NCBI GenBank assembly: GCA_001724265.1
Contig: MEDY01000046.1
Location: 62,001 to 110,427 of the forward strand
Direction: 5' to 3'
DNA from: Rhizaria sp. SCN 62-66
Taxonomy: Eukaryota
DNA length: 48,427 nucleotides
A program made the position numbers and the translations under genes. Shown piece by piece: positions 16,488 to 47,105 of this stretch (positions are counted from its first letter, which is position 1; every line of letters begins with the position of its first letter). The notes beneath the pieces were generated by a model that was not told the DNA's origin, searched no databases, and worked only from the letters and a program-made list of their open reading frames with translations.

Positions 16488-19400
16488 ATGTAGCCCCGCA
16501 CGTCAACATACCTCCATTTGGCGGAGCTTCTTGCGCGTCTGCAGGCTTTCGAGGCCCAACTGGTCTCATCCCCTGCGAACTGCGATGTCGAGGAAGTCCA
16601 AGAGCTCGTGGCAACGCACCTTGTCCCGTGGTTGAACACCGCTCTGACGCCAGAGTATATTATAGAAGCCAATAATGACCCGTCTGAGTGGTGGCGCACT
16701 GCTGCAGATGCGATTTCTCCCGAGACCGCACGCATGCCCCTCGTTGACCGCATTGCCGCCGTTCGTGTCCTCCTTCCGATGACTATCGCGCTGCCCACCG
16801 ACGACGATGACGCAGCGCTTCCGGCATATTACGCCCTGCGTGCTGTTGCCCTGGAAGCCCTTACCCGCGCGCTGCGGCTGTGCGTGGCGATGGGTGCCAT
16901 GGACTTCGCCGTGGCGTTAGTGCAGCTCGCGCGCGTAGACTACAGCGACCGCCGCGAGAAGGCGTTTGAATCGATCCGCAAAAACGCTGAGAAGAAGGCA
17001 GCAAAGAAGGAAAAGAAGGAGAAGAGCGACAAAAAAGACAAGAAGGTCAAGCGTGCTGGCGCGAGCGAGGAACAGAGCGAAGGCGATTCCAGCGCCGCTC
17101 AGTCGTCTTCTGGCATTTTCAGCGTGACTGATGTGAGTGAGGTCACCCCGCAGATGGTCGTGGACTACACCAGGAAGAATTATAAGATCATGCGCTCGCC
17201 CGCGTACGTTACGCTGCTGCTCTGGTTTTCCAGTGTCACGCGCATTGATGATTTTGACATCGCCGCTTTCGTGAACTTGGATCGTGGTGCGGTGCCCGCC
17301 GTTGCCATCAGTTACGCCGCATCAGATGCTGAGCGCCAGTGGTCCCACGCGCTCTGCGTCTTTTTCACAACGCCCGGGTTTCTTACCGCCGACGCGCCTG
17401 CGCTTCCGCCCTCTATTGCCCTCGCTACAGCCGCTAACCCTGTGATATCCGGCGATCCTCGCGCTGACGCGACTTTCACCGCGAAAACCCATGCAATTGG
17501 GACTGATCGCTACCATGATAAGTTTTGCGAGCGGCTCTTTACCCGCGTTTGTAATGATGCGCGTGAGGCAAATATTGCTCTGCCAGGGCCGCACTACGAC
17601 GACAAGAGTCACCGCATGCTGTCCATGGGCCTCCTACTGGCGCATGCGCTGGCGGCTGATGTGAACGCCTTCGCTGAACGCGAATTTGCTCTCAATCCCC
17701 CCACTAACAACGCAAGTGCTGCTGGTGATTACAAGACTGCGGTGGGGCTTATTGCCAGTGCACCCGCATTTGGTCTCTGGATCCAGCACTGTCTCGCCGC
17801 ACTTTTCCCGTCGAGTCTTGTGGTCTTCGGCGTCATCAGCGAACTTCTCACGGTTATCCTTAGCTTGCTTCTTGATTCTCCCAAGAACGGTGCGGAATTT
17901 ACCAGCCTTAGCGAGCGTCAGCGCCGCGCACTACAACTTCTGCGTCGCTGTCTTGATCCTGTGATCGCGCGGCTCCCAACGATTCAGCTCCCGCCCGCAG
18001 AGGCGATCACGGCACGGCTGCACACCACGGCGGGTGCTCGCGGTGCCTTCACGCCGCTGCTGCTCCCGCTGCTCAAGCAGCCCTCAGATGCGGACGCGCT
18101 TGCAGCGCTGACGCGCGGCCCCGGCGACCCCGCTGCGAGTGCACGTGTAAGCACGCTGGACCTCGACGACACCGCGTTCGTGCTCTGGCTCGACATCGCC
18201 CCCCCTGAACCCGGCGACATGTCCTTAACTGCCCGTCTCCAGATTGCCCGGCGTGAAAACGTGCTAGAATGGCTGTCTCCGCAGCGCGGCCAAGTGTGGA
18301 TGCCCTATGTGCGCATCAACACAGCGCCGAAGCAGCTGCTGCCTTTCGGCGATGAGCCGTTGACGGCATTTGCCCTGATGCCGGCGACGCCTTTGCCGCG
18401 TGAGAATGATGCGGAGGAAAATCCCTCCTTGGCGCTTCCTGTGCTGTCCCCCACGCGAGTGTCGCCGCGTGTGCTGGTCGACTATCTCCTGTCGCTTATC
18501 GACAATCCTACTGGAGACGCCGACCTCGACGCGGTTGCAGCGGCAGTGCCTGCATTGATTCTGCAACAGGCGTCTGTGCGAGGCGCCATGCATGACAAAA
18601 TGGCTCGCGATGCCGGACGCTGGCGCGATGACGCCGCTAACCCTGAGTTTCTTCCCAGTCTTTGTCACGCTGCACTACAAGAGCGTCTGCGCAGTGAGCC
18701 CGTCACCCCAGACCGTTTGCTGCAGCTTGCTCACAGCGATGACGACAGTGCGCCGCCGGACACGTCTTTTATTGCTAGCATTGTCAACAGCAATGACAAC
18801 ACCATGGACTATTGGTTGGAGCTTTTGCTCAAGTGCGTTGCAGCGCTGCCCGCTGCTGCGCGCAAGAAGCGATTGGCGGGTCTTGCGACTGTTCTCGCGA
18901 ATGTGATAATCGGCCGTAGCGGCGAGGGATCACTAGCTGCGCTTGCACCCGCGATGTACAGTAGTGTTACTACGCTGGCGAATGCCGCACCTAATGCGCA
19001 CAACGCTCCACTGTTGTACACGGTTGACTTGCTGTTGGCGTTGGTACCGACGGCCGCACAGACATCTTCGTTTCTGGCAGTGGCGCTTTGCAAGATTTAC
19101 GCGACCTTGTTTATCGAAATTAACTCGCTTGCGCAAATGCGCAAGGTCACATCTATTGGCCACATTGACTTTATGCGGATCTCGGACGCTGCCTTTGATG
19201 CCTTGTTTACTCTCTGCCCTGAACAGCCGGTGGCTGTCATTGAGGACACAGACAAGGGTAGCAGCAGCCTCAGTGGGAACAATAGCGGTAGCTCTTCTGC
19301 AAAGACAACTGGACCTATCTCTGCTGGTGTGGCAGTGGCCAGTGGCACCTCACTTACAACCCTGCAACGCGCCGTTGTGGAGATATTCCTGCTTGACGAC

Positions 19401-22400
19401 GAGGCTGAGAAACTCACCCGCGAGCGCGGCGCAAACAAGATCTCTCTCTCTCTGCCTGAAGAGGCGCACGCGGTCTGCCGTCGTTGGGCAGAGCATGATC
19501 ATGCGCGTCGGTTGAACACTTTGCTCGGCAAGGTGACCTTCGGGGCCGAAGCGAACAAGTTCGGGACTGCTTCAGCTGCGATGTCAGTCAGCCGTGTCCT
19601 CCACGCGATGGCCCGTACGGCGGACGTTTCACTCGTTCTGGCCTCGTGGCGCGACTCGTTGATGCCGACGCTTGTCGCGCCTGCGGCACCCTTTGCGGAG
19701 TCAACAGTGGCAACATCAGTTGAGATTGCAAATGTGTTGCTTGCATTCGCAAATGAGACAGCCGCAAGTGTCAACAACGTTTGTAAGACAGAAAAGACGT
19801 GGCGTTGGCCGTGTCTGCTGCTCAATAACACCGCGACAGACCGCGTCCGGTCCCTGGTAGAGCTCACTAACTACTATCACAACCGCGACGCAAAGCAATA
19901 TCAGGCACTTTTGACTGGACTGAAGGCATTTCTTGCTGAGTCAGTTGCACCGTTCCTCGCCGGACTTGTTGCTGCCAGCAAAGTTTCGGTCTCGGCCAAC
20001 GCCGACTATGCACATGCACGCTGCTCAGCTCAACTCCACGGTGCGCTGCTGCGTCTGTTACGTTACGCTCTGCCCCAAGTTGCGACGTCCGCCGACGTTT
20101 CGGAGCTTATCTCCGCTGTAGCTGAGCATGACTCCGGCATGATCGATCTTTCTGACTCGGAGGCCGCTGCTACAGACGAAGAAGATACTGATGGGGACGA
20201 TGACAGGCAGGAAGAAGAGCAAAAGGAAGAAGAAAAGCGTGGAGTTCGCGAGCCCAAAATCATCGGTGAAGATACGTCTTCACGTAATCTGCCCGTTTTT
20301 CCTGTTAAGCCTTCCATCAGTCGCTCGCGTAATTCTCGTCAAAAGGCCCTGAACGGCTTCGTCGAGACGATCCGCAGCCTTTCCACGGGCGCTTCTGGCC
20401 GCGCCATGGGTGGTGTAGGCAATGCGCTGGGCCAGGCACTCGATGCATACGCGTCGAGCACCAAGACGCGTGATACAAAGGCTGGTCGGATGCATCATAC
20501 TGACCGTTTCTTGGAAGACGAGTCGTCAAGTGACAGCAGTGATGGCGATGCTCGTGGCAACGGAAAAGATCGAAACAACGATAGTAGTGACAGCGATGAC
20601 GCTGAACAGAGCAACGGAGGGGTGTTCATGACTCCAACTGCGCGATCGAACCTTGCGCAACTACAGCTGATGATGCAATCGCGCGTACACATTATTGTTG
20701 AAGGCGAGACAGGACAGGGCAAGTCAGCGTTGGTGACTGAGTCTTCGCGGCAGCTTGGACTGGACCTGGTCCGTGTGAATCTCTCGGCGACTACTTCGCG
20801 CGACACGCTCTTTGGCCATGCTACGCTTCACGATGGCGGCCGTTTCTGCATGACTGAGGGTCCGTTCCTCCGTGCCTACCGCACCGGCGCTGTGCTGCTG
20901 CTCGACGAGCTCAACCTCGCGCAAGACGCAGTGCTGCAGAGTATCGAAGCAGCGCTGGACCCGACCGTCACGGTCTACACACTGCCACGTGAGGCAGATG
21001 TGTTCCTGGGCAACGTCAAAGGTGATGACGGGAAGGATAAGCCGCAGTATGAGTGGCGTACGCGTGTGGAGCGGCATCCTGACTTCCGTTTGGTGTGCAC
21101 ACAGAACCCTGCTGGTAGTCGCTACTCTCGCCAGTCACACTCGGATGCTTTCCTGAGTCATTTCAGCATCGTTAAATTCAAGTCATACAACGCGGATGAC
21201 ATGCGGCTGATTGCCCAGCGCCGTATTGCCGCGCGATGGCCCCGTAGGGGTGAGGGACTGCAATCCTGGGCAAAGCGGCTCACGAAGGCGTTCCTAGGCG
21301 CAGCGGCAACAGAACTTCACCGTGCGATGATTGCTGCTTTCGGCTACCCCGCTGTCGCAACTGCTAAGGGTTCTGACGCATTACCGTCAGTCGTTGATTC
21401 CACTCCCGTTCTGAAGGCTGCACAAAAGCTTGCCACTGATCAACCTGCGATTGAGTCCGTGGCTCTCGAAGGTAAAGAGGCGTACGCGGAGATCACGCTG
21501 CGTGACTTGCTGCAGTTGTGCGATGGCCTCACTGCCTTGCTCACAACAGCCACGCCGGCTCGTTTGGGACTTAGTGGTGGCAGCAGCGCTGATGCTGCGG
21601 ATACAGCCGCTGCTGTTGCGTTTAAGCTGGAAGCGTGGGCGTGCTACGCAGCCCGCTTGCGAAGCAACACGAGTCGCAACGATCTCGCGGCTGTGGTGGC
21701 AGCGCTAACAAACACACTTTTCCCGAACAGCGCTGCGAACTCCGGGAACTCCGCCCAGAACATGTTCGATAACCTGCGTGTCTCTGCCGTTGGCGGTGCT
21801 AGATCTTCAATTGTCAGTGCGGGCGTGACCGCGGGTCCCTATACGGCAAATACGCCGATTGGTTTTTTAACTGCCGTGGAAGCTATTCTCAGCAAGAAGA
21901 AGATGACACGTGAGCAGCGTGCCTCTTTTCCCTTAGTGCGCGGTGCATGCATGGCGCTGTGGAACGAGCTGCGGCGCCAGGCCGAGAGCTGGGGTGTTGT
22001 GCCGGTTGACCTGGTGGGTCTCGCGCGCGCTATGCTCGATGCTGCTAAGGTCGACTCTGGGGTGGGTGTTGCAACGAACAAATCTTCGAAACGTGGTGGT
22101 GCAACGCAGGCCAATGGGTGGTTCGGAGACCTGGAGCCCGACGTGTTTGGCGCCGCTGAGGAGAGCGATAACGACTCGCATCAATTGTACAATGGTCAAC
22201 CTACATCTGCGAATCCTATCAATCTTGCACTTACGGATACTACGCGCGCTGCCCCTGCAGCATCGCTGATGGATGACGATCTTATTGTTTCCTCGCGCGC
22301 CACAGGCCGCACGCACCGCTACAATGCGCGCAACAGCAGCAGCTCTGCCGCCGGTGGTGATGACGATGATGACAACGAAGAGGAGGACATGGCGTCTGTT

Positions 22401-25400
22401 ACAGATGCAATTCGGAATCGTATCGCGATTGCGTTCTACAAGACCGTTTTTCCTTGGTTTGCAACTCCTTGTCACAACGATCTTCTGAACGTCTTGCGTT
22501 CAGCACTCGGCGATTCGGCAGTCTCCGCCGTGCGCGGCTTGGACGCGAGCAACGACGCCGCACGCTTAGTGCAGCCCGTCCGGCTAAACCTTGTACCTGG
22601 AGCATTTGTCTGCCTAGTTCGCGCTGCCTCGCTGCGCCAACCCGTGCTCATGTCGGGCCCTGCTGCCTCTGGTAAGACATCGCTGTTGCGCGCATTGACC
22701 TTCTTGACCAGTGGTCTTGCACCTGAGGAAGTGTTCCTGACGCGCCAGTCTGAACCGGAGGACCTCATTGGTCACCACTCTATTGCGCAGGGCAAGCGTT
22801 TAATCTGGGTTGACGGCGCCGTCACGCGCGCGGCTGAGGCAGGACTACCATGCGTTTTGCACAGCGCGGACCTTGCGCCTGCAACGGTGCTTGAGCGTTT
22901 GAACCCGGTGATGGAAGATCCCCCCCACTTATCTGTGCATGAGAACAACGAAGCGGTACCACGCAAACTCGGCAAGGGTTTCTTCGTCGCCGCGATGGTT
23001 ACTACGACTGCAGAAGCAGTCGCAGTGCACGGTTCTGGTATCTCTCCTGCCTTCTTCAATCGTTGCAGTGTCATCCACGTTGACCCTGCAGCGCGTGCCG
23101 ACGGATCAACGCGTTTTCTCTCAGCTATCGCCGCCCCATATCTCGCCGGACGCACTGAGCTTCACGCTCTTGCGCCGCTGCTTGCACAGTGGGTTGCCAC
23201 AGCGGGAATTGTTGACACGCCCATCTCTATGCGCGCAGCTTACCACATTGTCCGTGCAGCCGTCGCCGCTGCACCAGCTATTGCACGCTTCCCATACTCT
23301 GCGGCGCCTGGGTCTGTCGCGGTGAATAGCGATCTTGTTTGGCGCGCCCATATGTGGCTCTCGGGCACTCTCTTCGTGCGTGCGACACCCGCGTTACGCC
23401 GCGCTTGGTTTGCCGGCGAGCATCGCAATGCGGTGCGCGCTGCTTGTGTCCATTGTCTTGCGTGTTACCCCACGGCGTTGTGGGGTGCAGACTGGGGTCA
23501 GCCCACGGCAACATACACGCCTTGTGGCACGGCGCTAAATCTCGCCGCGCTGGCGTGCCTTGCGCGCTCCCCGCTGCTGCTTGAGGGTGATGCCGCAACT
23601 GGTAAGACTGCACTTGCGCGGCACCTTGCGCGGATCCACGCTCCCCTTGACGATTATGATTTCGGTGTCACTGAAGAGAAAATCCCGAGCGAGACCAGTA
23701 TGAAGGGTGTTCTGGAGCGGTTTAATAACTCAAAGAGCACGCGCCGTGAGGACTACTTTGGATCTTTTGTTCCCGCAGGTGCTGGTGAGTTTATCTGGGT
23801 TTCTGGTCCGCTGACTCGCGCGCTGAGCGCAGGTGGTGTGTTCTTGGCCGATGAATTCAACCTGTGTCCTAGCGACGTCATGAACTGCCTTGCGCCTGTG
23901 CTTGAGTCTGGTTTGTGCGCTGTGACGACATACGACAACGAGACGCACGCGCCAATCGTTAAACGCGCGCGCTCCTCTTTTTTGTTCCTTGCGACGCAAA
24001 ATCCGGCTGCGATGCGTGGTCGTTCTGCGATTCCTCCTGCACTGTTGGAGCGCTTTGCGCTCATCCCTGTGCGGCCCTATATTAAAGGCCAGCTAGAACA
24101 CATCGCAAAGAACTTTGTTGAAAAGCATTCTGTTGCCAATACTCTGGTGGCGACTGCTGACGCATCACGTCTCTTTGGTATCACTCGTGTTGCTGCGCCT
24201 GCGCAGTCCCAGATCAAGGCTAGTGATGCGGCGTCAGTCTTAGTGACTGTTATGCAAATTCTTTCGGATGCAGCTGCAAATGGTGACTTGACTGTGCGCG
24301 GTAGCGCTGGTGTGGAGGGTGCTGAAGGTGCGTTCACCGTTCGTTTCATGCAGCGCTGGTACGGCCGCTTCACGAAGGCGTTCACGCACAACGCCTTCTT
24401 CATCGAAACGCCCGCCCTGACGAATCTTACGGTGGCCCTGGGTGGATCTTCCGGTCGTGCCATGGCGTTATTGCTGCTTGTCGGCTTTGAGCTTGCATCT
24501 TCTATTATTGTTGCTACAGACCGTGAGAAGGTCGCGGGTGCATTTATGAACGCCCTTGTCGTAACCAACCTTGTTGACGGACACAACGCCAACGCGGCTG
24601 CAGCTGCTCTGATGGCAGCATGTCCTGTTGCGGTGACCGTACGTGAGGCGCGCGATCACGCTCTTCTGATGCGCGGATCCCGTGCTGTCTTGGTGCCACC
24701 CCATGCCGTGGCACTTATGGTTAGCTCCAACGTCGCACTATCCACAGCCCCACAGACTCTGCTCCAGCCACTCGTGCTCGCCGCCTCCGCGCTGACTGCG
24801 GCTGAGCCAACGTGCCTGATCGGTCCCTCTGGCGTTAAGACCATTGTTGCTGAAGCCGCACTTGCAGTGGCTTCTGATAGGAACGCTAATGACGCTCTGG
24901 AGCGTGTTTATCTTACTTCGCTCAGTGAGACGCATGACTTGGTCGGCCACATCCACGCATGCGCTATTGATGCTGCGCCTCTTGCTTTCGTTACTGCAAT
25001 GCAATCCTTGGTCGCGCGTTTGCGCGCACTACAGAAGGATCTAGTGAGCGTAGCAGAACGCGACATCGCAAGCAAACTTTTACAACCGATTGAAGCAGTA
25101 TACACCGAAGTTGATGAGAAATTCCAGCAATTTGAGGTGTCTGTTGATGAGGAAGATAAGCCTAGTGTTGATGGAGCTTGCAAGGCAACCACAGCTGTGC
25201 CTGCTTCAAAACCTGTGAGTGTTGCGTCACCTTCTCCAGCGTTCGTTCCAAAGTCGCATGTTCGCGAACCGAAGCTCAAGGGGCGCAAGGCTGTCGACGA
25301 TGAAAGTGAGAGTGAAAAGTCGTTCGCCTCTTCGACTGAAGATGAGTCTGACTCGCAGTCATCTAGTCCCGATGACAGTGACTCTTTTGTGAATGTGGCT

Positions 25401-28400
25401 GACAATGTGGAAGACTATGACAGCAACGATGCGTCCCCGCATATGTCACTCGCAATGCCATCCTCTGTTGGTATTAATAAGCGGCAGCGCATCCAGTCAT
25501 TTTTTACGTCCACAGAGGTTGCTTCTGCCTACTCAAGGCTGCATTTCATTGCGACAACCGTTGAGACGTCTCTTGTTAAGGATACCTCAGAGCTTGCACT
25601 TGTCCGGGACCCTGCTGTTCTGAACTTAATCAAGTGGATCTGTGCGTTTGTCACACGTCTCTCAACGTGCAACAAACCTGGTGCTCCAGGCATGGACTTT
25701 GTGTTCAACGATGGACCTCTTACAATCGCACTTAAGCAAGGTCGAACTCTTCTTTTGGAAGGCCTCGATGAACCGTCAGCTGCAGTCACAGAGCGTTTTA
25801 ACAGTGCACTTGAGTACGAGCGCAACTTCAATCTCACTGAGGATGTTTTTTCGCAGCGCCAAGCTGGTGGTATTATCGCTATCCCGTCATCGTTCCGCCT
25901 GGCCGCGACAGTCACATTTGATCCGAATGCAGGCATGCTGCGGCTGTCAAGTGCGTTGCGTTCGCGTCTTACCGAGGTCTGGACGGAAGGTTATGAGGCT
26001 GCTGAACTGTGCACTGCTGTCTCTACGGTGATGCGCACTGAGGAGAGCAAATTCGCACCGGAGGCCTTGACCGCGCTGGACAATGTTATGCGTTCTGTCG
26101 TTACATGGGCTGTACCCGCGCACGCGGCGCGTGGTACTGTCTTTGGTATCCGCAACTCGCTGCGGCTTGCGCACTTTGTCACTGCGTACGCTAAGACGCA
26201 TGCCAACGTCTTTGGTCGCGAGCGTAGGATGACGCCCGAGCACGCGTGTGCGATTGCCGCGAGTGCTGTGCAGTTTGTTGTGTTGAACGCGATTCCTCGC
26301 GAAGACCGTGAGACGCTACGTGACGCACTGTCAGCTGCTGTTTTATCAAAGAGCTTCGGCAACGTGACCGTAAAACGGCTTCTTGCAGACACTAAGTTTG
26401 ACACCGCTGAGGCCGCTGCGGCAGCGCTTAAGGCAACGGCTGACGGCTACCGTGGCGCATTACCACCTTCTTTTGCTGCAGACGATAAACACTTTGATCA
26501 TCCACCGATGTGGGGTGTGAGCGCCGAAACGCGTCGCCTAGTCGCGATTGCCGAGGATGACACGACGCTCCTGGCTGGTGTTGCTGTCGTTGATACGATC
26601 GCTCTCGCACCATGTCGCCGCGGTTGGCGCGCATGCGATGTTTGGGCGGTATGGCGACATGAGCGCTTCTGCGCGCTGAAGAGCGTCCGCAAGAATCTCG
26701 AAAACATCTTCTTTGCGACGAGCCTTGGCATGCCACTTCTGCTTGAAGGTGCGCCTGGTAACGGCAAGACTGCGATTGTGCGACTCGTACACCGCGTGCT
26801 AGGCTTCGCAGGCGTCAAGACTGCCGCACGCATTGATAATGAAGTTGTTGCTGTTATTGATCCCGCTGCTCGCAAGAGTGACTTTGATCATTACGTGCGT
26901 TTGAACGCGACTCGTTCTAGTACTAGCGGCGCAATGTTCGGGCAGTATATTGCAAGCGCTGACAGTGAGGGTCAGCAGGTGTTCCTCTGGCAGGAAGGCG
27001 CCATGAGTTCGGCTTTACAAGAGGCACGCGACTGCACCGACGGTTCGCAGCTAACATTCCTTCTGCTGGATGAGATCAACACATATAGCTCAGAGATCCT
27101 ACAGACAATTGTTCCTTACATCGCTGACTCTGTTCCAGGTGCCGCTGTGACGCACGGTGACCCTGCTAAGCGCTTAGTGCCAGCGTCAGTCCGTGTGTTT
27201 GCAACGATGAATCCGGCGAGTGTCGGTGGCGGTCGCGTAACGCTTCCTCCTGCTTTGTCAAATCTGTTTGTGCGTGTAGAGCTCGAGGAGTACACAAATG
27301 ATGATCTGTGCCTCATTGTGTCGCACTTGACTCTTGGCAACGAGAAGAATATTCTCGGTAAAGCAGAGGTTGAGTTGCTACTTCGCATCCACATCAAGCT
27401 TTCTACTATGATTACGAACCGTGACATAGCATCGATTCCGCGCCACGAAAACTACAACTTGCGTGATCTGACAATGCTTCTTGCCATGGTGCGCACGTAC
27501 ACGCCTATCATGCAAGCTTTGTCGCGCCTTTCGAGTTCTAGTGGACCTGCCGTAAACGCCGCCTCATCATCATCATCATCGTCGTCTTTTTCTGCTGTAA
27601 ACACTGATGTTGCACGTGACAGCTCCGTAGCACGCCACGCAGTTAGTAAGTTCGCAAGTCTGGTCTACGCACATCGCATCTCCGACTCTAAGGAACAGGC
27701 ACTTGCGGTTAAGGCTATTGTGGATGAGACCAACAGTGCATCTGACTCTGCAGCTGCTGCTGCTCAGCAGCGTTCTGGAGCTGCTCACGACTATCTTGAT
27801 TCAGACGTTTCGTTCACTTCGCTTGCGAATGCTGAAACTGTTGCAGTTATGAGCCGGTTCATTCGTATTGGCATTGTATTTGCCCAACGTGGCCCTCACC
27901 GCTCTATGGAACTTCCATTAGTCCACACCGCGGATACGGTAGAGTTGCTGGAAGCGATGCTCGCGGCTTCTCAGTCGCGGTGCCCTGTATTGCTTGAAGG
28001 TCCGCTTTGCGGCGGCAAGACTGCTCTTGTCCGTGAGCTTGCGCGGCTTTGTGGTCACAAACTCAATACTGTTAATCTTCATCAGGACGCTGATGATGGC
28101 GATCTTGTTGGCACATGGGTCCCACGCTCTTCGGACCGTACTTCTAAGAACACTCTTGAACATGCGATTTCAGCTTCCGATGCTGTTTTCATTGCCGTTT
28201 GTGCCAATCTTCGGAAGCGCGTGCGGGCGACAATGACCTTGAAAAATGCGGCGTTACTTGTAGCGCTTGCCAAGGAACACAGGGCCATCTCTGAGGCTAC
28301 TGCAATCGACACGGCTATTGCTGCAGTCCAAGCATTCCGCACTGCGTATAACCACCTTCCTAATGCGCTTGTTTGCTCTGATCATCGGGCCTTGTTGAAG

Positions 28401-37400: not shown

Positions 37401-40400
37401 CATGCTATCACAGTGGTGATCATTATTGCATTGCTACACTGTACGGATTTCCGCGATGCCCAAGTTGCTATTGACGCTTTGCAATCATACTGCAAAAAGC
37501 AGGCGATCAACCGCGGCGGTGGCCATCTGTGGAGCCCCCAGGTACCGGCCAGTCTTGTAGGCGTGTTCCACACTACCCAGACGCTGCTCACTTACTGGGG
37601 TCGTGCCGCTGACAATGTTGGCAAAGTCAAGACAGGTGGCGTGCGGCCGCATGATGCCATGACTGCGCTCCGACTACCGCGTAACATGCGCGATACTCCC
37701 GTTAATCAGGCCAATCTCCGGAGTCATACCGGTGCGCTTGAGCTGTTACGCCGACTTAACTTCTCAGGCTCATCAGTCATGGAGCTCACTGAAAATTCGC
37801 CAGGTGATGATAATGGTGATAACGACGAAAATAAAGATACAGGTCAGGACGCGAGTGCTGCTGAAATACCGCGCTTTAAATGGAGCCAACCAGGAGTGAT
37901 CGCAAACTTCGGCGTGATGTGTCCCGGTGAGGCCATGGCTCATCGTGAAGTGCGCATTCGCAATGCCACGGCGCACAACGTCGAGTACACCGTTGAGCTC
38001 TGTGTGGCGGGCTCACGTGATGCTATCCCAGCCGGCGCTGACGGTTTTGCACAGCGCGCGGGACTCTGGGTGTCGCCGATGCATGGTACACTCCTGGCAG
38101 CACAGACTGCGACGCTGCGCGTGTCCGTCGAGCCGCTGTTGTCGCAGCCGATTTCGATGCTTTGGGACGTCTATGTACGCATGCGCGCTGTGCGCAGCAG
38201 CGGTATCGACCTACCTGAGACAGCGTTCCGTGTTACACGCTTGCTCGACATGCCGCGTTTGCGTCTCTCCGCTCCGCGCGTCCTGTTTGCACCCCTGAAA
38301 CTCGCGTCAGGTGGTGGCCAATTTAGCCCTGCAACAGCTTCACTGACAATCACGAACCCAGGCGAAAGCGACGTCACGTACGCTCTCTCGCTGGGCGAGC
38401 AGTGGCGCGTCACCGCCGCGCAAAGTGTTTCAGATCCTCTTGGTACTTCATCGATCGATAGAGACTGGCGCAGTGCTGTTAGCGGACCAGGGTACACTGT
38501 CGCGAGCAGCAGTAGTGCAAGCGCCAGCGTTAGCTCTCGCTCTAGCTCTCGTTTGTCGGCTCCAGCCATCGCTACGCTACCGATACGCGCAGATTGTTTC
38601 CGTCTGTCTGTCGAAGACGCTCTCTCCGCAGCGTCATCTGCGGCAACTGAAGCGCGGGTGCTTGTTGGGCCCGGGCAAAACAGGGAGGTCCGCATTGAGT
38701 GTGCGCCGCTGCCTCTTGGCAACTTTGCGTTAGCGACTGTTCTACAGTTGCGGCCCATCGGTGCAAGCGACGCGCCTGCACAGACGCTGCGTGTCCCTGT
38801 TATCGCCACTGCCACTGTTCCGCAAGCAATTGTTCGCGTGTCGCAGTCTCAACCGCTTTCTGGTTCACGCGTTGATGTAACGGCCAGAATGCAAACAGGG
38901 CTCCAGTGGACTGACATACCGGGCGTACCCTTCGTCGAAACACCGAAGCGTGATTTCGCTGACCATCGTGCACCTCGGTCACAGTCTGTGCAGCACAAAA
39001 TCACGTTTGGCACTCCGATGTCGCGTGGTGGATTACTGCGCACGGCATGTCTGATCGCTGTGGCGTCAGGCGAACGGGGTGGTGAACAGCCATATAAGGT
39101 TGAGACTGTTGAATCTCCTGCTGGTGTCACAGTGCTGTTTAACAACAAGAAGACACTTAAAGACAAGGCTGGTGGAATCGCGGCGTCGGCTTCAGTTGCA
39201 ATCATTAATGTTAGCGTGTCTATTGAGGCATATTTGGCAGTCACCTTAAAGTCTTCATTCACGGTCAAATTCAATATTATAACCGACACTTCTCAGCGAA
39301 TCGTCGAGCTCGTAATCCCGTTAGACAATGACTTCATTAGTTCCTACATCAATTCTTTGTCAATCTCATGTTCCAACGTCGACCGTGTTCTGACTCGTAC
39401 TCGTGAAAACGAAAACATGTCTCTCATCCTCACTGATACCCAGAACTTCCGCTCGTGCAAAGACCGGCCAACTGCCGTCGCGGTCCCTATTCCCGGCCAA
39501 GATGGAATTCGTCTGCTCTCAGTTTAGCGCTCACCCAGTAACACTCTCACAGTGCCGTTACCGGAACCTGCCACAGATGTTGCGTTGTCCAGCTACCGGT
39601 TTGGAGTTGCAGCCTGGCAAATGGGTTCATCCGACTACCGGCCGGCGTATGCGACCGTAACACCATTGTTTCCACGCCTCCGCTTTTCGTGGGAAGTCGG
39701 TGATGCTGACAAGAGCGGTCGCGTGACCGTTACTGTCACGGTGCACAACATAGGCAATCACCGCGGTGCACTCGCGCTGGGCATTCCTGATTTATCTGGG
39801 GCTGAAAACGTCGATTCGGTCGTGTATCGGGGTGGTGATATGCGAGAGTGCAACAGTGAGAGTGATTTCTTCAATGATCTTTCGGAGGCAACCCATGTGC
39901 CTGCTGCGAGTAAGCGTGGAAATCGCGTGAACAACCAGAGTGACGCTCCAGAGCCACGCTACTGGCGAACTCTCGAGCCCCAGACGTCGACTGAGCTAGA
40001 GTTCAACATAAGGATCACCCCTGGGATCAGCGCTGACACAATCGTAGCCTCATCAATGCCAACGCTAGACGAAGGAGATGAAGAGGGTGGTAGCAGCATT
40101 ATTGCGTCTACAGCTGCCGCGTCGTTGAATGTTGCAAACTCGACGACAGACGACGCTATCGTACAGTGCCCCCTTCTGTTTTTTACTGATGAGCCCACTT
40201 TGCTGTCTGTCACTGGTCGTCGCCAATTTTCGGTGCCGATTGCGCGTGCGTCGACAGATCCTGCGCAGATAGACAAATATAAGCGTGATGCTATACTCGA
40301 GGACGTTCTTCATGTTCCTACGCCCCATGGAGTTCGTGTGGGAGCTCAGTGCGCCACGCGGAGCACGCACGTGACACAAGACTTCCCGTTGCCTCGTGAC

Positions 40401-43400
40401 GCTGCGGAGCTCTTCACGACGACTATGCGTTTGTTCTCTGACGCTGCCGTGACCGAGCTTGTCAACTTTAGTACCGAGTCTGTGTTGGCAGGCGCCTATA
40501 GTGGCTCTGGATATGTCGACGGCGTGTCTTTGATGGAGCGACTCACGCGTGACGCATTGGCGGAAGTGACCAAGAGTTCCTCACTAACTTATAATACGAC
40601 TGCCACAGATGACGCTGTTGCGGCTGCGATGCACAATCTGCGTGAAAATGACAGCACGGCCCAAGCGAGCAAAGAACTTGAGTGGAAGATGCCGATGGTG
40701 GTCGAGGCGCCCAGCGTTGGTGATGTAGAATGCGTTATTTGTGGCGAATCCAGTGTGGACGGTGCCGGTTGGTTGATGTGTAACGCACAATCGTGCGATG
40801 GCAAGCACGTCCTGTGTAGTGACTGCGCATGTGGCTATGTTGAAACGAGTGTGTTCGCCGAGCTCATGGCTAAGAATGTGACCTCTGTGTCAAATGCAGA
40901 CGTATTTGCCGACACAGAAGGTATCGTGTTCTGTATGGCGACAACGCGCCACCCTGTCCGTCTGGCGCTTCTGACAGCCCAGGTTGCGGGTACGCGTGCG
41001 GCAGATGTAGCTGGTCAGTGCATGGCACCGCCCTTCACTGACGAGCAGCTGCGCCGAGTGCCCAATGTCTGGCAGCGCGTCGTTGCTGCCCGACAGCACC
41101 TTGCGGCCCTCAAGCGCCAGCGTGATGAATGTGTGCGTGCTGAGGAAGAGCGTGTGCGCTTACTTGATGAGGAGGAACAACGCAAGGCGCGCAAACGCAG
41201 TCAAGCTGAAGCTGACATTCGCCAGCAATTCGCGGGGATGAGCAATCTTCTTCAGTGCCCACGATGTGGCCACGGACCCGTCGAGGCGTTGAACTGCTCC
41301 AACTTACAAACACACAATGGGCAGGCATCTGGCAGGGGAGTGATCAACAACTCGTGTGGTGCATGTAGTTTTTTTTCAGCTGATCGGAACGCCTGGCACG
41401 CATTCAATGGCGACTTTTCACGCTTATTAAACGATGTTGCCGTCAGTAAAAACCTTACTGTGAGGCAGCAGTCGCCCGCTGAGCTCACCCAGCAGGCGGC
41501 AGAACGCGAAATTCGCAGCAAGGATTTCATCCTAGGCGCCGAGATCTGTCAACGTTCGTTAAAGCGCGCGCATGTAGCTCTAAAGTCATCGTCGGCGATG
41601 TTGGGCGCCGCCCTGAGTGGACTGGCGAACAACGCACTTTGGTTGCCGTCTTTCCGTACCGCTGCACGTATTACTGGCGAACTTGCTCGCGCGTGGCAGC
41701 ACTTACATGAAGCCTTCCGTACTGCCATCGACCGTGCGAAGCCGCAGTTCTTACTTAGCGTGATTGATTGGACTGCTGCGATAGGTCTTTTCAAACACCT
41801 ATTACGCTCTGTCAAACTTGCCAGTGCTCTCTTTGCACCCATTGCACCACGCCCAGTTGCAACTTCCGTCATTCTTTCTGGGACTGCAGCTACAAATAAT
41901 GAGTTAGTATGGCGCCGCGCTCCCGCAGTTGGTCTTGCGAATCTGCGACGCCAAGTGTTGGCCTTTGCTCGCACCGTCAGTCGCGAGGACCGCGCGCGCG
42001 ACGTTGCAGACAGTCTGCGTGAGGCTGACCCTGACGTCGGTGTCGTCCGTTTTGCTGATGATACGGCTGCTGCTGCCGCTGAGCGTGACCGCGCCCACGC
42101 CGAGCAAGAGAATAGCACCGAGGACGACACTGCCGCCCGCAAGCGCGCCGCGGAGCAGCGCGAGCGCGAGGACGAAGATGAACGTGATCGAGCTCGCGAT
42201 CGCCGTCGCAAGCGTGAGCATCAGGAACAAGCCGAACGCGAGGCTGCTGAAGAGGCTGCGCGTGCCGCTGCAGAAGCTGAACGTCGACTTCAAGAAGAAG
42301 AAGCCCAGGACGCGGAGGACGAAGCCAATGATGTTGGCAACGCTGATGAGCGGCGTGAGCGTGCTGCTGAGCGTGAGCAAGCGCGCGCTGCCGCGCAGCA
42401 AGCAGCTGATCTTGCAGCAGTCGATGGCGCTCCTGGCGCCGCTGCTCCTGACGCCGGTACTGGTGGCGGGACGGCTGGAGCTGCGGATGCCGCTGCGGCA
42501 GCTGTCGCTGCAGCGGCTGCAACGGACCCAGCGTACCGTGCACTGAGGCAAGACGACATCAACAATGCGTTCGACGCCGCGAGGCAAGCGTACGCGAACC
42601 AGCGTCTCGGTCGCGGTGCTGAGGGCCTACGTGGGGCTGCTGCGGCGCAGGCTGCAGCGGACGCTCTTGAAGGGCGTGGGCACCCTACCTGGGCGGCAAC
42701 GGTGGCCGCAACTGTTGCCGCCGCGGCTGTGGCAGCAACCAATGGAACAACTGCCGCTGCCGCGAATGCGGCGGCGGTAGAGGCTGCTAATGTGATGGCG
42801 CAGCGCCACCACGGGCTGCAGCTGCGCGAGGATGACATCGCCGCTGCCGCCGAGCGCGCCTTTGGCGGTGTCCGTGACGGTCGTGCTCAGGGCCGCGACG
42901 TGGATGCTGCAGCGCGCGATGCTATTCGTGAAGGACTCGTGGGTGTCGGTTTCCAGTTCAACACGGAGAATCAGGTCCGCAATGAGCGCGTGCAGGCCGA
43001 TGCTGCGGCAGCTGCGGCCGATGCAGCGACAACTGCAGCGCGCGCCGCGAACCGCGGAGCCGCAGCCGCTGCTGTCGCTGCGGCTACGGCCGCTGCGTTT
43101 GCGAACGAGGCGGGTCGCGGCGCGGCTGCAGCTGCGGCCGCAGCTGCCGCAGCTGGTGCTGCAATCGACGGTGGCGCAAATGCTGAAGCTGCCGTGGCCG
43201 CTGCTGTTGCTGCTGCAGCAGCTATCGATGCTGGCGCGAATTCTGGGGCTGCAGCTGATGCTGGCCGTCGTGCGGCCGCAGCCGTCACCTCCTACGGACC
43301 TGGTCACGGCCACGGCACAGGTAATGGAACTCGTAACGGTCGCCCTGCCCACGGCCTTGGTCGCGGCGACGAAAGCGGTCATGGCCCCAACAACGGAGAT

Positions 43401-46400
43401 GGCGCGGAAGAGGAAGAAGAGGAGGCTGTGGAGGACGCGATGCTGACTCAGCAGCGTCTTCGCGACAAAGCTCGCCACCAGCAGACGCGTGACGGCACGC
43501 GCCACAACAACGCTGCCGCCGCTGGCAACAGCTCCGGGGGCGGCAGCGGCTTGAGCGCGGCTCAGCGCGCCATGCGTAACGCTGGGGTTGGCGACGACGC
43601 GGCAAGTGGGAACGGAGCTTGTGGCAGCTCCAACTTAGGTCGCAGTTCTGTTGCTGGAGACCCTGGCAATGGCTCTTCCGACGGCGCCACTAGCGGCAAC
43701 CATCTGCCTCGTGGCTTTGGACCCTCTGCAGCACGTGGCAGCCGAGATCGAGCAAGCGCTGGTGTTGGCCATAACACAGACCGCATCAAGTTTACAGACA
43801 GCTTTGCTGCAGAGAGTCTGCGGTCGTCACGCGTGGCCAATGCGCTCACGCGCGGCACGCTTCACATCGTGGCCGACAACGCTCATCGCAACAACGACGA
43901 CGATGACGAGGACGATGATGATAGCAGTGGAACCAAAAAGAAGAAGGCTGTGGATCCCAATGATATGGTCGAGGTCAAACTCACCGGAGAAGAGCTCGCT
44001 GCGATGCAGCACCAGATGCAGCAGCAGCGTGGCGGTGGTGCGCGCAGCTACGTCCGTATGGATGCTATCACGGACGAAGCAACTGCTTTTGCTGAGAATG
44101 ACATTCAGCGCGTTGACCACTCGACGTACGAGCTGCTTGCAAACTTGCCCTCTATGCGCACATTTGTTCGCGCTTTGGTTCAGCGCGCGCGCAGTGCCAT
44201 TATGGAGCTGAGTCGTCACCTGAGCGCTGCTCCGGAAGGCACCATGCCGGTCGCATTCTGCATTGTCATCGACTGCTCAGAGTCCATGTCAGGCCGCCGT
44301 GGTGAGTTTGCGCGCACTGCTCTTGTTTTATTGCTCGAAACGTTCCGTCGTCTTGAGTGCCCCGTCTCCGTCGTCAAGTTCTCTGGATCCCGGCAGCAGA
44401 ACGTGCTGCTGGCAATGGGCGCACGCGATCCGTTCGACTACGTGCGTGGCGAGCGCATCATGACCGAGCTCGCGCAGGCGGGCCGCGGCACGCGCTACGC
44501 CGAAGCTCTGCAGTTCACCGCGACGTCAGGCTTTACTCTCGCCAACGCTGAAGACGGCGCTGGAGACGGCGCCTTCCGCACACGACAGGTCAAGGCACTA
44601 ATGCACAGCGTGCTTGTGATTTCTGACGGTGAGATTGAGTCCGTACGTGACGAAGACATCGCCCGCAATTTGTATCCGTTCTATTCAGCACAGAACATGC
44701 ACCTGGCGTTTGTGCAAATTCACTGTGACAGCGTCAAGGGCGACAGTGCGGCAGATGACTTCAGTCAAAACACCTTTAACGCGCTGCGTGAGTTCTATAG
44801 CAAATGTACCGGTGTGCAAGCAAGTGCCCGGCAGTGGTACCATGTCTTCCGTATGCTTGATAGCAAGATGAACGAGCTTCCGCGTACCCTTGGTCGCATC
44901 GTTGAATCGCAGTTACGTGAACATATCAAGCGACTCGAGTCATCATCCGCTGCAAATGCTCCTGTTGCCCGTAATGTTGCGCACACTGCACCAGCACCGC
45001 AGGCTTCGAGCTCAGTCACAGCTGGAGTGGGCTCGGTTATGGCCACCGTGCGTCGTCTTACTCGTGTCGACAATCGCACAGCGTTAGATGCACGGAATCT
45101 CGTTGAAGATGTCATGTTTGTGGGTCCGACTGACGGTGGCGCAGCCTCCGCTGCAAGCGGCGGCACACGCGGCGGGCGCAAGGCGAAGGACGACGGCTTC
45201 CACGCTAGCGCACTTGACGCGCGCCCTCACAAGCCGGACAAGTCGGGCACCACTGTCAACAACATAGCTGCGGGCAACTCCGCTGCGCAGCGGACTGTTT
45301 CTCAGCGCGCGCAGTCGGGCCCAGACCCGCGCTGGGCGGCGACGCGCGTTGTGACTGGAGCACTGACACCTGCACACGCGCAGGTTGTCGAGAACGCTTG
45401 GCGCGAGGTCCTAGCGCGACTTGCACAGGCGCAGCGTGGCCTGGTGCATTCTTTCTCTGAGGGCTGCCTGCCGGTGAACCGTTTCTCTATCGGCGCTCCT
45501 GCCGCTAAGGGCAGCAAGCTCAGCATGGCCGGCGTCATGCGTTTCCTTTTAACTAACGGCATGAACAGGAACATCTTTGAGGCTCAAGCTGAAGGTGGCT
45601 CGCGCAAATACTCGCTGGGTATTTTGCTCGACCGCTCAAGCTCTCTCTCTGGACCCGCAGGTGCCGAGGCGCAGCGCGCGGCGGTGCTGCTCGCAGCGAC
45701 ATTCGTTTCGCTGGAACTGCCACAATTCGCCGTGATGGCTTTTGGCGACGTGATTGAAGTGCTCAAGCGCCGCGACGAGCCGTTCACTGCACTCCACAAG
45801 CTGCGTCTGCTCGCGGCCACTGAATGTGTTGCTGCTCGCACGAACGACGCCGAAGCCGTAGCCTCTATTGCGCAACACCTTGCCCAAGGCGCTGGTGACG
45901 ACACACCCGCTCTGCTGTTTGTGTTCACCGACGGTTACAGTTCCGACCCTGTCGGGCTGCGGCAGACGCTGCAGACGGCTGAAGCGCAAGGTGTGACCGT
46001 CGTCGCCGTGAGTGTGGGCAACCCCGACGCTGACGTGGCGGCGGCGTATCACCACTACGTGATGGCGCGCGACCTAGCCGCACTGCCCGACGCGCTTCTG
46101 CGCTGGGCCGGCGGTGAAGGCGCGCACCTGCCCCCGCTGCCTCCCATTGAGGATGTCTTGGACGACCTCGACGAGTCGGCGGCGCAGCTTGGTGACCGAG
46201 GGCGTGGCGACGCACATGGCGTGTGGGATGAGCGCAAGGCCCTAATGCGCACTCGTGGACAAAACCTTGAGAATGAAATTGTACTGCGCGTGAACCGCAC
46301 AGCACTGCGCAATGTTGGTGGTGGCAATATGGATGGTGGCGATAGGGACATGAGCTTTGACATTGTCATTGCCATTGATACCACGGGTAGTATGTCGTCA

Positions 46401-47105
46401 TACATTGACGGACTTCGTAGGCACGTGACGACAGTTGTCAACAACCTCGCGCAAGAGATCAAGCAACGTATTGGTCGCAATGCTGTCATTCGCCTTGGTA
46501 TTGCGCCATACAATGATCACAAGCCTGGCTGTACGCGCACAACTTGCGATACTGGCAGGTATGGCACATGCCACGCAGACTATTACCAGCCCTACGATTT
46601 TGTTGAAGACATGAACAATGCGAGCACCTTTATGCACAGCCTGAACGTCGTCAATGGTGACGACTGTGAGGATGTTCTTGGTGGTCTGTGGAAGGCGACG
46701 AACCTGACGTGGCGCGCTAACAAGGGCCGCTTTGTGCTTCTCGTCGGCGACATGCCCTGCCACGGCGTGCAGTACAACCAGCGTCAAGGGTACCCTTCGA
46801 CGCATGACTCGATTCCTGGTGGTGATCCAAAGGGTATCACGCCAGAAATGATTGTCAACAAGCTGGACGATGACGCGCGCGCCGCGGGTGCAGAGTTGCA
46901 CATGATTGCTGTCGACCCTCACAGTACAGGCAATGGTGAGCGCACGTTCATGGAGCCGATGTTGATGTATTTCAGTGACCTCCTTGAGGCCAAGGGGCGC
47001 AAGCCTGTCAAGCGCGTGCCTCAAGGACATGGAGTCGACGTTGCAGAGTTCATGCGCAACGCGCTGCACAGCATTCTCTCGCTTGTCACCGAGGACGTGC
47101 TGTAA
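16488..47105 (+). CDS. Giant midasin (Rea1/MDN1)-like protein of ~10,205 aa: 6 AAA+ modules, helical linker, Ig-like domains, RING/RBR-like Zn modules, Ala/Gly-rich linker, 3 vWA domains; two in-frame TAG codons (16491-16493, 39525-39527)
   Basis: ORFs 16518-39527 and 39552-47105 share a frame and are separated only by TAG plus 8 sense codons (RSPSNTLT). An in-frame ATG lies at 16488. The AAA ring is in the first ORF and the midasin-type MIDAS domain is in the second, as expected for one polypeptide. Final stop is TAA. Confidence 0.8.
20690..28810 (+). other. Six tandem MoxR/midasin-type AAA+ modules
   Basis: Walker A motifs: GETGQGKS (20703), GPAASGKT (22656), GDAATGKT (23586), GPSGVKT (24822, degenerate), GAPGNGKT (26748), GPLCGGKT (27999). 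Midasin-like motifs F.W..GPL..A, LDE.NL, ERLN, FRL.AT.NP, LS.ALR.R are also present. Confidence 0.9.
37890..40030 (+). other. Tandem Ig-like beta-sandwich (ASH/PapD-like) domains spanning the second TAG
   Basis: Patterns ANFGVMCPGE..REVRIRNAT..VSPMHGTLLAAQTATLRVSVEP; VLFAPL..ASLTITNPGESDVTYAL..VGPGQNREVRIECAP; VTVTVTVHNIGN..LEPQTSTELEFNI. Confidence 0.6.
40731..41380 (+). other. RING-like Zn finger followed by an RBR Rcat/RING2-like Cys cluster
   Basis: CVIC-x11-C..C..H.LC..C..C..C, a charged helical spacer, then CPRCGHGPVEALNCSNLQTH..NNSCGAC. Confidence 0.6.
42060..43760 (+). repeat. Low-complexity coding region: Glu/Arg/Ala coiled coil followed by poly-Ala/Gly-rich repeats
   Basis: Many GCN runs, e.g. 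AAAAAVAAATAAA, GAAAAAAAAAAAGAA, AAVAAAVAAAAA. Confidence 0.8.
44250..47102 (+). other. Three von Willebrand A domains with MIDAS-type motifs
   Basis: vWA1 IVIDCSES (44271)..GT..VISDGE. vWA2 ILLDRSSS (45630)..TND..VFTDG, preceded by the midasin-like GSKLSMAGVMRFL..NIF..RKYSLGILLD. vWA3 IAIDTTGSM (46377)..YNDH..GDDCEDVLGGL..L.W..VGDMPCHG. Confidence 0.88.

Follow-up and report, generated by a model that had tools for sequence, protein, structure and literature searches.

Midasin and dynein are regarded as the two single-chain six-AAA motors of eukaryotes, and RNF213 as a later animal addition. In the prokaryotic MoxR-vWA pairs, as described in passages of PMC7159879, the partners are separate proteins and the vWA partner, which carries a metal-ion-dependent adhesion site (MIDAS), captures the peptide; RNF213, according to PMC12075652, couples an AAA ring to E3 activity. 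The locus compared here with these systems lies in a window of 48,427 nucleotides (contig MEDY01000046.1 of assembly GCA_001724265.1, Rhizaria sp. SCN 62-66, forward-strand positions 62,001 to 110,427; all positions below are those of the window), in which 16488-47105 (+) forms one reading frame of 10,205 codons, interrupted by exactly two in-frame stops, both TAG. It is likely that this frame represents one ancestral gene for a giant midasin-like mechanoenzyme of about 1.09 MDa, belonging to an uncultured, intron-poor eukaryote of wastewater and bioreactors and to a widespread protein family, with the full-length product dependent on decoding or read-through of TAG.

The two TAG codons stand at codon 2 (16491-16493) and at 39525-39527, and under the standard code they leave two open reading frames (ORFs) in the same phase, 16518-39527 (7,669 codons) and 39552-47105 (2,517 codons). 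From the sequence and its translation, the initial ATG is immediately followed by the first of these TAGs (16488..16493, +), a start usable only if TAG is decoded, and the first in-frame ATG after it is at 16734; the frame closes with a TAA (47103..47105, +), after which about 600 bases of AT-rich spacer follow. An earlier interpretation of this DNA, made without database searches and referred to below as the sequence-only reading, had proposed a single protein of about 1 MDa; the frame of 10,205 codons is real and its full-length product has a predicted mass of 1.09 MDa, but the two in-frame TAGs had been missed. No tRNA gene, hence no suppressor tRNA, and no Rfam family is present within the window.

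The central part of the giant is a ring of six AAA modules, all on the forward strand, whose P-loops lie at residues 1406, 2057, 2367, 2779 (degenerate, GPSGVKT), 3421 and 3838, and each of the six, scanned singly, matches Pfam AAA_5 above the cut-off of 22 bits. AAA1 (20568..21695; 54.3 bits) has the Walker A motif GETGQGKS and the Walker B motif LLLDE; AAA2 (22521..23450; 55.4 bits) has GPAASGKT, with no Walker B found by a script check for D[EA] after a hydrophobic run; AAA3 (23451..24578; 55.4 bits) has GDAATGKT and FLADE; AAA4 (24687..26237; 33.8 bits, in the C-terminal half only) is the module with the degenerate P-loop; AAA5 (26613..27740; 32.4 bits) has GAPGNGKT and LLLDE; and AAA6 (27864..28991; 52.0 bits) has GPLCGGKT and a Walker B reduced to LLDA. 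A full Walker A together with an hhhhDE Walker B is confined to AAA1, AAA3 and AAA5, AAA6 retaining just the Asp. An insert of about 250 residues, acidic and rich in Ser, interrupts AAA4 between the P-loop and the remainder of the domain, and the two pieces of the module (residues 2755-2849 and 3070-3203) are collinear with residues 482-574 and 1006-1153 of a Chlorarachnion homologue (P0071), which points to the split as an old feature of the family.

The best solved relatives of the ring in a PDB sequence search are Rea1/midasin chains (E 4e-76), well above NorQ and CbbQ, which scored far more weakly; beyond midasin, NorQ and CbbQ nothing was returned at E<=0.001, and no dynein or RNF213 chain was among the matches. 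Both the number of modules and the midasin type of the ring had been correctly recognized in the sequence-only reading. The Pfam scan gave, in addition, a weak bpMoxR match and an equally weak AAA_lid_7 (PF17867) match after AAA1, which scored 31.8 bits when a long segment was scanned and 21.8 bits for the isolated module (cut-off 22.7), and the midasin lids AAA_lid_5 (PF17865) and PF21108 were not found in it at E<=0.01. A word-indexed protein search returned 31 proteins at E<=0.001 among 679 candidates; one is the protein encoded in the window itself and another is P0021, and the remaining 29, all midasins or midasin-like, share 22-35% identity with the query over 6-28% of its length. When the modules were compared with those of a fungal midasin, AAA1 was best matched by midasin AAA5 (87.5 bits) and AAA2 by AAA3 or AAA1, and AAA4, AAA5 and AAA6 gave weak matches to the modules of the same number, all module scores being low. 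By these alignments, the AAA modules do not appear to be in one-to-one correspondence with those of midasin.

The C-terminal end carries three different vWA domains, as the sequence-only reading had stated, in each of which a MIDAS-type motif follows a hydrophobic strand. The core of vWA1 (44262..44522, +) matches Pfam VWA_2, has its MIDAS start DCSES at 44271 and is collinear with P0021; the core of vWA2 (45621..46031, +) matches Pfam VWA (E 2.6e-14), with DRSSS at 45630; and vWA3 (46365..47102, +), with DTTGS at 46377, reaches 24.2 bits against VWA_4, below the cut-off of 27, a position at which relatives match VWA_4 with E-values of 1e-7 to 1e-12. Tiles of the giant were also compared with a set of about 180 proteins, made up of the 30 non-window hits of the word-indexed search and representatives from an HMMER search with the vWA region; vWA2, the domain most like the MIDAS domain of midasin, matched 132 family proteins together with 9 of the 29 midasin-like hits, and the vWA3 tile matched 107 family proteins. 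The vWA block is preceded by a low-complexity tether (41925..44027, +), which runs from a charged stretch (D/E/R) through an Ala-rich part with some Gly to a poly-Asp run and contains two short tandem repeats; with 33-34% Ala over residues 8501-9000, it agrees with the Ala/Gly tether noted earlier. With TAG read through, an antisense frame of 492 codons (41904-43382, -) opens over this tether, and the richness of the tether in GC and Ala is its most likely cause.

The same combination of ring and vWA domains recurs in other eukaryotes. P0021, an unnamed protein of 6,783 aa, aligns in one chain with AAA4-6 of the giant and, collinearly over 811 columns, with vWA1-3. The HMMER search with the vWA region (44025-47102) against 1.84 billion representatives gave 1,117 matches at E<=1e-3, 172 at E<=1e-10 and 41 at E<=1e-30, and among the best 150 of the 1,117 there are many chains of 4,300-7,400 aa with P-loops only at their N-terminal ends, which are read, from this placement, as N-terminally cut copies of the giant architecture. 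Besides many metagenomic proteins, the family has named members from green algae and a rhizarian, which comprise a hypothetical protein of Bryopsis sp. KO-2023 (GMH42204.1, 6,477 aa), a transcript product of Chlorarachnion reptans (CAMPEP_0114502740, 7,408 aa) and Mv01936 of Mesostigma viride (7,189 aa), and one JGI cluster in the family is labelled 'MoxR-like ATPase/uncharacterized protein YegL'. The Chlorarachnion protein P0071 is collinear with AAA3-6 and the Mesostigma protein P0074 with AAA4-6, and the C-termini of both match the vWA region; P0050, P0061 and P0080 likewise have N-terminal P-loops and C-terminal vWA matches. The distance from AAA6 to the C-terminus is alike across the family, at about 6,000-6,400 residues. 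The collinear AAA and vWA domains of these relatives place the giant in one family rather than leaving it a lone oddity, and on this evidence the giant is a member of a sizeable, deep family related to midasin yet distinct from it. No published description of this family was found at the level of abstracts and quoted passages. The sequence-only reading had treated the architecture as exceptional in its own right, although the giant is one among many such proteins; the proposed status of midasin paralogue is supported at the level of the family (collinear giants, three vWA domains, no clear one-to-one modules).

A different origin, in which the giant would be the organism's own highly diverged canonical midasin (the MDN1 orthologue) acting in 60S ribosome biogenesis, draws on the fact that midasin is the best-scoring known relative, on an order of six AAA modules, linker, acidic tract and MIDAS-type vWA that follows the midasin plan, on the weak AAA_lid_7 match and on the weak agreement of AAA4, AAA5 and AAA6 with the midasin modules of the same number. 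It is very unlikely, since PF17865 and PF21108, which are among the Pfam matches listed for most midasins of the word-indexed search, were not found at the threshold given above, the best midasin counterparts of AAA1 and AAA2 stand at other positions of the ring, there are three vWA domains in a protein twice the size of midasin, and the family occurs in Mesostigma, Bryopsis and Chlorarachnion, lineages expected to own a normal MDN1. The role of midasin is near-universal. The giant is probably a separate lineage rather than a canonical MDN1, judging from the domains compared.

Whether the domains reach the same polypeptide depends on the TAG between the 7,669-codon and 2,517-codon ORFs (39525..39527, +), which is seen in the sequence and in both DNA and RNA contigs. 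Contigs from four sequencing runs were aligned to 37000-42000. A DNA contig from another study (X3 record 4, 39375-40290) includes the TAG and shows 0 differences, which rules out a sequencing or assembly error at this site; a contig of poly-A RNA (X8 record 23, 39365-39653) also includes it, with 0 differences and no splice joint, and RNA contigs are found both upstream and downstream. The TAG at 39525 is genuine, transcribed and unspliced. Its removal by a 42-base in-frame GT...AG intron (39511-39552) was considered and rejected, X8 record 23 being unspliced and free of joints; it should be borne in mind that rare forms are lost from contigs and that DNA can be present in RNA libraries. In a related strain (X4) an in-frame insertion of 3 bases (TGT) follows 40330, downstream of the TAG.

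Decoding or read-through of this TAG is given a chance slightly better than even. TAG occurs only twice in the 10,205 codons of the gene and in none of the other long ATG-start frames listed with TAG translated as X, a rarity far too great for an ordinary sense codon, which counts against decoding. The five gene ends in the window (four neighbours and the giant gene) are TAA, TGA, TGA, TAA and TGA, and the absence of TAG from all five is counted in favour of decoding. A true stop at 39525, either in a recently broken gene or in one split into a 7,597-aa motor and a 2,494-aa zinc/vWA protein starting at ATG 39621, is a substantial possibility, if not the probable one: two studies have the TAG in frame in their DNA, RNA carries it unspliced, the public gene calls are separate (P0003, 7,669 aa, and P0034, 2,494 aa), TAG is too rare here for an ordinary sense codon, and the split would resemble the two-gene MoxR and vWA pairs, which are described as separate proteins in prokaryotes in PMC7159879. 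It is opposed by the sequence immediately downstream of the TAG, which continues the frame in phase without a stop for 2,525 codons, by a gap of only 94 bases from the TAG to the next ATG, with no spacer of the intergenic type, and by the insertion after 40330 in the diverged strain, which keeps the frame. P0021, P0071 and P0074, checked residue by residue, carry AAA and vWA domains in one chain, and P0050, P0061 and P0080 extend the pattern with their N-terminal P-loops and C-terminal vWA matches; such fused full-length relatives favour an origin of both ORFs from a single gene. No longer fused form of the C-terminal part was found in a search covering proteins of 4,420-5,000 aa. Upstream of 16734 there is just one ATG, and the TAG that comes directly after it is a hint that TAG is decoded. 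If the TAG were not decoded, the locus would yield a motor part of 0.82 MDa and, at best, a separate zinc/vWA part of 0.26 MDa; the reading preferred here, a single ancestral gene, would require its decoding or read-through for the full-length protein.

Two Cys clusters lie at 40731-41380, where the sequence-only reading had placed them, and are separated by a long helix. The first (40731..40952, +) is a RING-like Cys/His cluster, recognized by its motif, by alignment and by weak fold matches, with the pattern C-x2-C-x12-C-x4-C-x3-H-x2-C-x2-C ... C-x5-H, in which the first six ligands have the canonical RING spacing and the last pair (C-x5-H) is non-canonical. Residues C9, H34, C37, C40 and C76, together with V45, are invariant in all four homologues compared (the giant, L001, L003 and P0190), and P0190 has the canonical C3HC4 spacing, ending in C-P-K-C. 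Of the 32 family proteins of at least 2,000 aa, 3 have a RING pattern at the equivalent distance before the vWA block, namely P0044 and the Chlorarachnion P0071 by a strict pattern and the giant by a looser one; P0044 also matches Pfam zf-RING_2 (E 2e-5). A Pfam scan of the cassette alignment found zf-RING_14 in a single member (E 0.028), and hhalign against two family RINGs brought the first six ligands into register, but with E 0.005 and a probability of 7%. The AlphaFold2 (AF2) model of the Cys segment has a mean predicted local distance difference test score (pLDDT) of 66; of the 317 matches that Foldseek gave for the cassette model at E<=10, none reached E<=0.001, but RING E3 domains occupy 7 of the ten highest rows, the best being ZNRF1 (E 0.39, root-mean-square deviation 2.2 over 50 columns). 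The helix (41061..41228, +) is coiled-coil-like and corresponds to residues 128-183 of the AF2 segment, with pLDDT values of 75-95 in blocks of 10 residues.

The second cluster is a five-Cys zinc-ribbon-like domain (41211..41447, +) with the motif C-P-x-C-x-H-G-P ... C-x-N-L ... C-x2-C-x-F-F, laid out as two Cys pairs with the fifth Cys between them, followed in most members by His-His; C16, C19, G22, P23, C29, L32, N47, C49, C52 and F55 are invariant in all nine sequences. A profile built from three sequences found 8 proteins in a database of 5.8 billion, with E-values of 2e-34 to 9e-8, and Pfam gives a weak Zn_ribbon_3 match in 7 of 10 members (best E 0.032), with no IBR in this cluster. With the model of the cluster, a VIA-wide comparison gave 0 of 48,161 chains at Z>=2, a result that proves neither novelty nor a different fold, and a PDB sequence search with the Cys region returned nothing meaningful. 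The identification of this cluster as Rcat-like found no support, no IBR or Rcat match being obtained by Pfam or fold search; the RING-like identification of the first has motif-level support from the conserved ligand pattern (4/4), but none from Pfam, and the fold matches are weak. As to the modelling of the two clusters as RING/RBR folds, the first gave weak RING matches (E>=0.39) and the second none. To judge from these comparisons, the five-Cys zinc-ribbon-like domain belongs to no described family.

The hosts of this domain are varied, comprising an orthologue fragment (P0035), a GBP/URGCP-like GTPase protein (P0184, loci L002-L004), a protein kinase with a canonical RING (P0190) and a membrane protein of the dinoflagellate Polykrikos kofoidii that has a RING at its C-terminus (P0185/P0189), besides the helical proteins P0186 and P0187, which have no RING. 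In the GTPase protein, which belongs to another uncultured eukaryote (P0184; L003 7103-8338; L004 frame 2), the whole cassette is placed before the GTPase domain, and in P0190 it lies behind the protein kinase. The combination of RING-like finger, helix and five-Cys ribbon looks like a mobile module of large proteins of signalling or immune type. Within the set of vWA-family proteins, the ribbon is found only in the giant and P0035 (53% identical), which points to a lineage-specific acquisition and not to a family-wide feature.

The cassette may add ubiquitin-ligase activity, by analogy with RNF213. The proposal that the protein is an RNF213 analogue, in which the RING-like finger would recruit the E2 and the second Cys module would transfer ubiquitin within a machine of defence or quality control, is tentative and rather doubtful. 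It can draw on the RING-type ligand pattern conserved in 4/4 and the canonical C3HC4 of P0190, on the 7 RING E3 domains among the top 10 Foldseek rows, and on the proximity of the zinc-ribbon module to RINGs in several unrelated proteins (P0190, P0185/P0189, P0184/L003). Against it stand scores that are all non-significant (Foldseek E>=0.39, VIA Z<5 with C1 and PARP domains tied, hhalign 7%), the lack of any IBR or Rcat match by Pfam, a second module that finds no fold match when taken alone and the restriction of that module to the giant and its orthologue P0035, so that it is no feature of the family; nothing found bears directly on defence or quality control. The precedent for an AAA ring controlling E3 activity is RNF213 itself (PMC12075652). 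Its RZ finger, as described in PMC11549300, binds zinc by C4505, H4509, C4525 and C4528, with C4516 as the nucleophile, that is, a single zinc site C-x3-H ... C-x2-C with the nucleophilic Cys between the knuckles and a distal His. The fifth invariant Cys between the Cys pairs of cluster 2, mostly followed by His, recalls this arrangement, but the RZ ligands are C, H, C and C in that source (PMC11549300), against CxxC ... C ... CxxC here; the RZ ligand pattern is absent from cluster 2, and the layout is similar with no sequence relation found.

The remaining regions of the chain are less easily assigned. The N-terminal region (16734..20567, +, counted from the first in-frame ATG after the TAG) and the linker (28992..37847, +, about 2,950-3,000 residues) contain no Pfam family at or above cut-off, and linker tiles covering residues 4201-8100 gave 0 matches in the set of about 180 proteins, the close fragment P0035 excepted. 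In related strains, a mini protein of 978-983 aa (P0036/P0200/P0201), present on 5 contigs of up to 68 kb, joins the N-terminal ~720 residues of the giant (88% identity) in frame to vWA3 (95% identity); the equivalents in the window are 16533-18698 and 46338-47102, the fusion point coinciding precisely with the beginning of the vWA3 strand, and by eye the three variants are mosaics of the N-terminal sequence of the giant and a second haplotype. The mini protein could be a deletion allele or a paralogue, and its fusion is a hint that the N-terminal domain and vWA3 work together. A candidate Ig-like region of ASH/PapD type (37875..40337, +), spanning the internal TAG, was delimited from motifs by eye, residues 7130-7950 showing repeated 'v.l.N.g...v.f' patterns of the kind seen in ASH/PapD-like sandwiches. 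In this sequence, no Ig-like domain was found by Pfam at E<=1 or by PDB sequence search, and jackhmmer seeded with the candidate region of the giant gave no link to the Ig domains of relatives; the latter have HYDIN/CFA65/VesB-like Ig domains (P0064, P0131) or ASH (P0106) by Pfam, about 1,900 residues upstream of vWA2. The Ig-like repeats claimed earlier are accordingly found in relatives only, Pfam, the PDB and the profile of the relatives all giving no match here; from the motifs, an Ig-like region in the giant is plausible.

As for the genomic setting, DNA of the giant gene is found in bioreactor, wastewater and activated-sludge metagenomes of several studies, and contigs of a poly-A RNA library map onto the gene. 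Its neighbours comprise a C2-domain ORF that exceeds 2,154 aa (1-6462, -), a phosphoglycerate kinase (PGK) of animal/fungal type (7989-9296, -), an 870-aa ORF with a sub-threshold RBFA match (9783-12395, +), a 425-aa ORF for which no family was found (14630-15907, +) and a partial ORF at the end of the window (47713-48426, -); the spacers between genes are AT-rich, and every gene seen in the window is an uninterrupted frame. The gene is read as eukaryotic because of the type of the PGK, the neighbour with a C2 domain, spacers rich in AT, contigs from poly-A RNA and relatives in named eukaryotes, and a bacterial origin was rejected on the same grounds. A kinetoplastid origin was rejected as well, the PGK scoring 541 bits against PDB chains named 'Phosphoglycerate kinase 1' and only 282 bits against the trypanosomal 13pk; bacterial and trypanosomal chains reach at most about 330 bits.

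In L001, an orthologue fragment with 53% identity, the RING-like finger and the helix are separated by a GT...AG intron (713-870) that is rich in AT and about 160 bases long; the window gene has no intron at this position. Strain X4 differs from the window at 29 of 516 bases in 37000-37515, and over the 2,523 bases of 39371-41893 by only 2 base differences and one inserted codon (TGT after 40330); this patchy divergence (37000-38050 versus 39371-41893) suggests recombination or fast evolution at the end of the linker and the Ig-like region. Across runs X4, X5 and X8, the 40 listed substitutions comprise 17 synonymous and 23 non-synonymous changes.

Several of these observations weigh against one gene for a giant mechanoenzyme with the domains described. 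The ratio of 17:23 synonymous to non-synonymous substitutions indicates, at the level of sequence, only moderate constraint. The TAG at 39525 may simply terminate translation, and for strain X4 the contig over the TAG has two substitutions of which one is displayed, so that its TAG is probable. A profile iterated from the Ig domains of relatives found 30 domains in 19 proteins, none of them in the giant. As to the zinc modules, no Pfam RING or IBR is present in the giant's copy at E<=1, the VIA matches of cluster 1 amount to ties (PARP zinc finger, Z 4.9; C1 domain, Z 4.6; ZNRF1 RING, Z 4.4) and all lie below the level that VIA calls common by chance, and cluster 2 modelled alone (pLDDT 73) has no fold match, the best Foldseek E being 2.3.

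The domains, the membership of the family and the presence of the TAG are established by the sequence comparisons; the mechanism, the E3 activity and the read-through are inferred. If the single-gene reading holds, the protein would run from the N-terminal domain to a single-chain ring of six AAA_5 modules, then through the linker and a beta-rich region (Ig-like in relatives) to the cassette of RING-like finger, helix and five-Cys ribbon, and by the charged, Ala-rich tether to the three MIDAS vWA domains. By analogy with Rea1 and the MoxR-vWA pairs (PMC3495828, PMC7159879), a substrate peptide would be gripped at the MIDAS sites through one of its acidic residues, and the presence of three different vWA domains suggests several ligands or avidity; ATP-driven movement of ring and linker would pull on the captured substrate or remodel it, and the zinc cassette could mark it with ubiquitin, RNF213 being an example of an AAA ring coupled to E3 activity. 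A more far-reaching version, in which the family is a third ancient branch of eukaryotic single-chain six-AAA mechanoenzymes beside dynein and midasin, here with a captured RING and a new single-zinc finger whose invariant free Cys is transthiolating, so as to form an E3 of about 1.1 MDa built independently of RNF213, with UAG decoded through a code change or programmed read-through that includes codon 2, is improbable. Were the preferred reading of one midasin-like gene correct, a separate, widespread family of about 1 MDa with three MIDAS grippers would represent a new class of protein-remodelling machine, the five-Cys ribbon, found beside RINGs, a GBP-like GTPase and a kinase, would be a candidate new domain of the ubiquitin system, and read-through or code change in an uncultured protist could be examined at this locus by way of its conserved, transcribed in-frame TAG; failing all of these, what is gained is the clean annotation of one very large hypothetical gene.

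Compared with known systems, the cassette is the part of the giant nearest to ubiquitin ligases. Cluster 1 resembles the RING1 of RBR E3 ligases, and the start of cluster 2 (C-P-x-C-x-x-x-[VI]-E ... C) resembles that of an Rcat; in contrast to RBR proteins, there is no IBR hit, the two modules being joined by a helix, one of the two Rcat zinc sites, the second, is missing and no Rcat fold match was obtained. RNF213/mysterin is likewise a giant protein joining a six-module AAA ring to zinc-finger E3 modules, which makes a functional analogy possible, but no sequence relation was found, since the PDB search made with the ring gave no RNF213 chain at E<=0.001, and RNF213 is not known to have a vWA domain. 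With the giant AAA-vWA family, the protein shares the collinear AAA3-6, the split AAA4, vWA1-3 and a similar distance from AAA6 to the C-terminus; it differs in the five-Cys ribbon, present only here and in P0035, and in a RING pattern found in 3 of 32 long members, and it is the relatives, not the giant, that have Pfam-detectable HYDIN/ASH Ig-like domains. The in-frame TAG is seen only in the giant; the corresponding positions of relatives are not alignable.

Like the giant, midasin combines in one chain six AAA_5 modules, a linker of great length, a charged low-complexity tract and a C-terminal MIDAS vWA. The giant is twice as large, with an extra N-terminal region of about 1,300 residues, an AAA4 split by an insert, three vWA domains instead of one, added zinc modules and a linker unrelated by sequence, and its modules do not appear orthologous position for position; PF17865 and PF21108 went undetected in the scan described above. 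With the MoxR-vWA pairs (NorQ-NorD, CbbQ-CbbO, RavA-ViaA) the giant has in common an AAA_5 ATPase of the helix-2-insert clade and a MIDAS vWA; an AAA_5/MoxR-type ATPase coupled to a MIDAS vWA, the feature that defines this class, is present in the giant, which in contrast to the pairs unites six modules and three vWA domains in one eukaryotic polypeptide.

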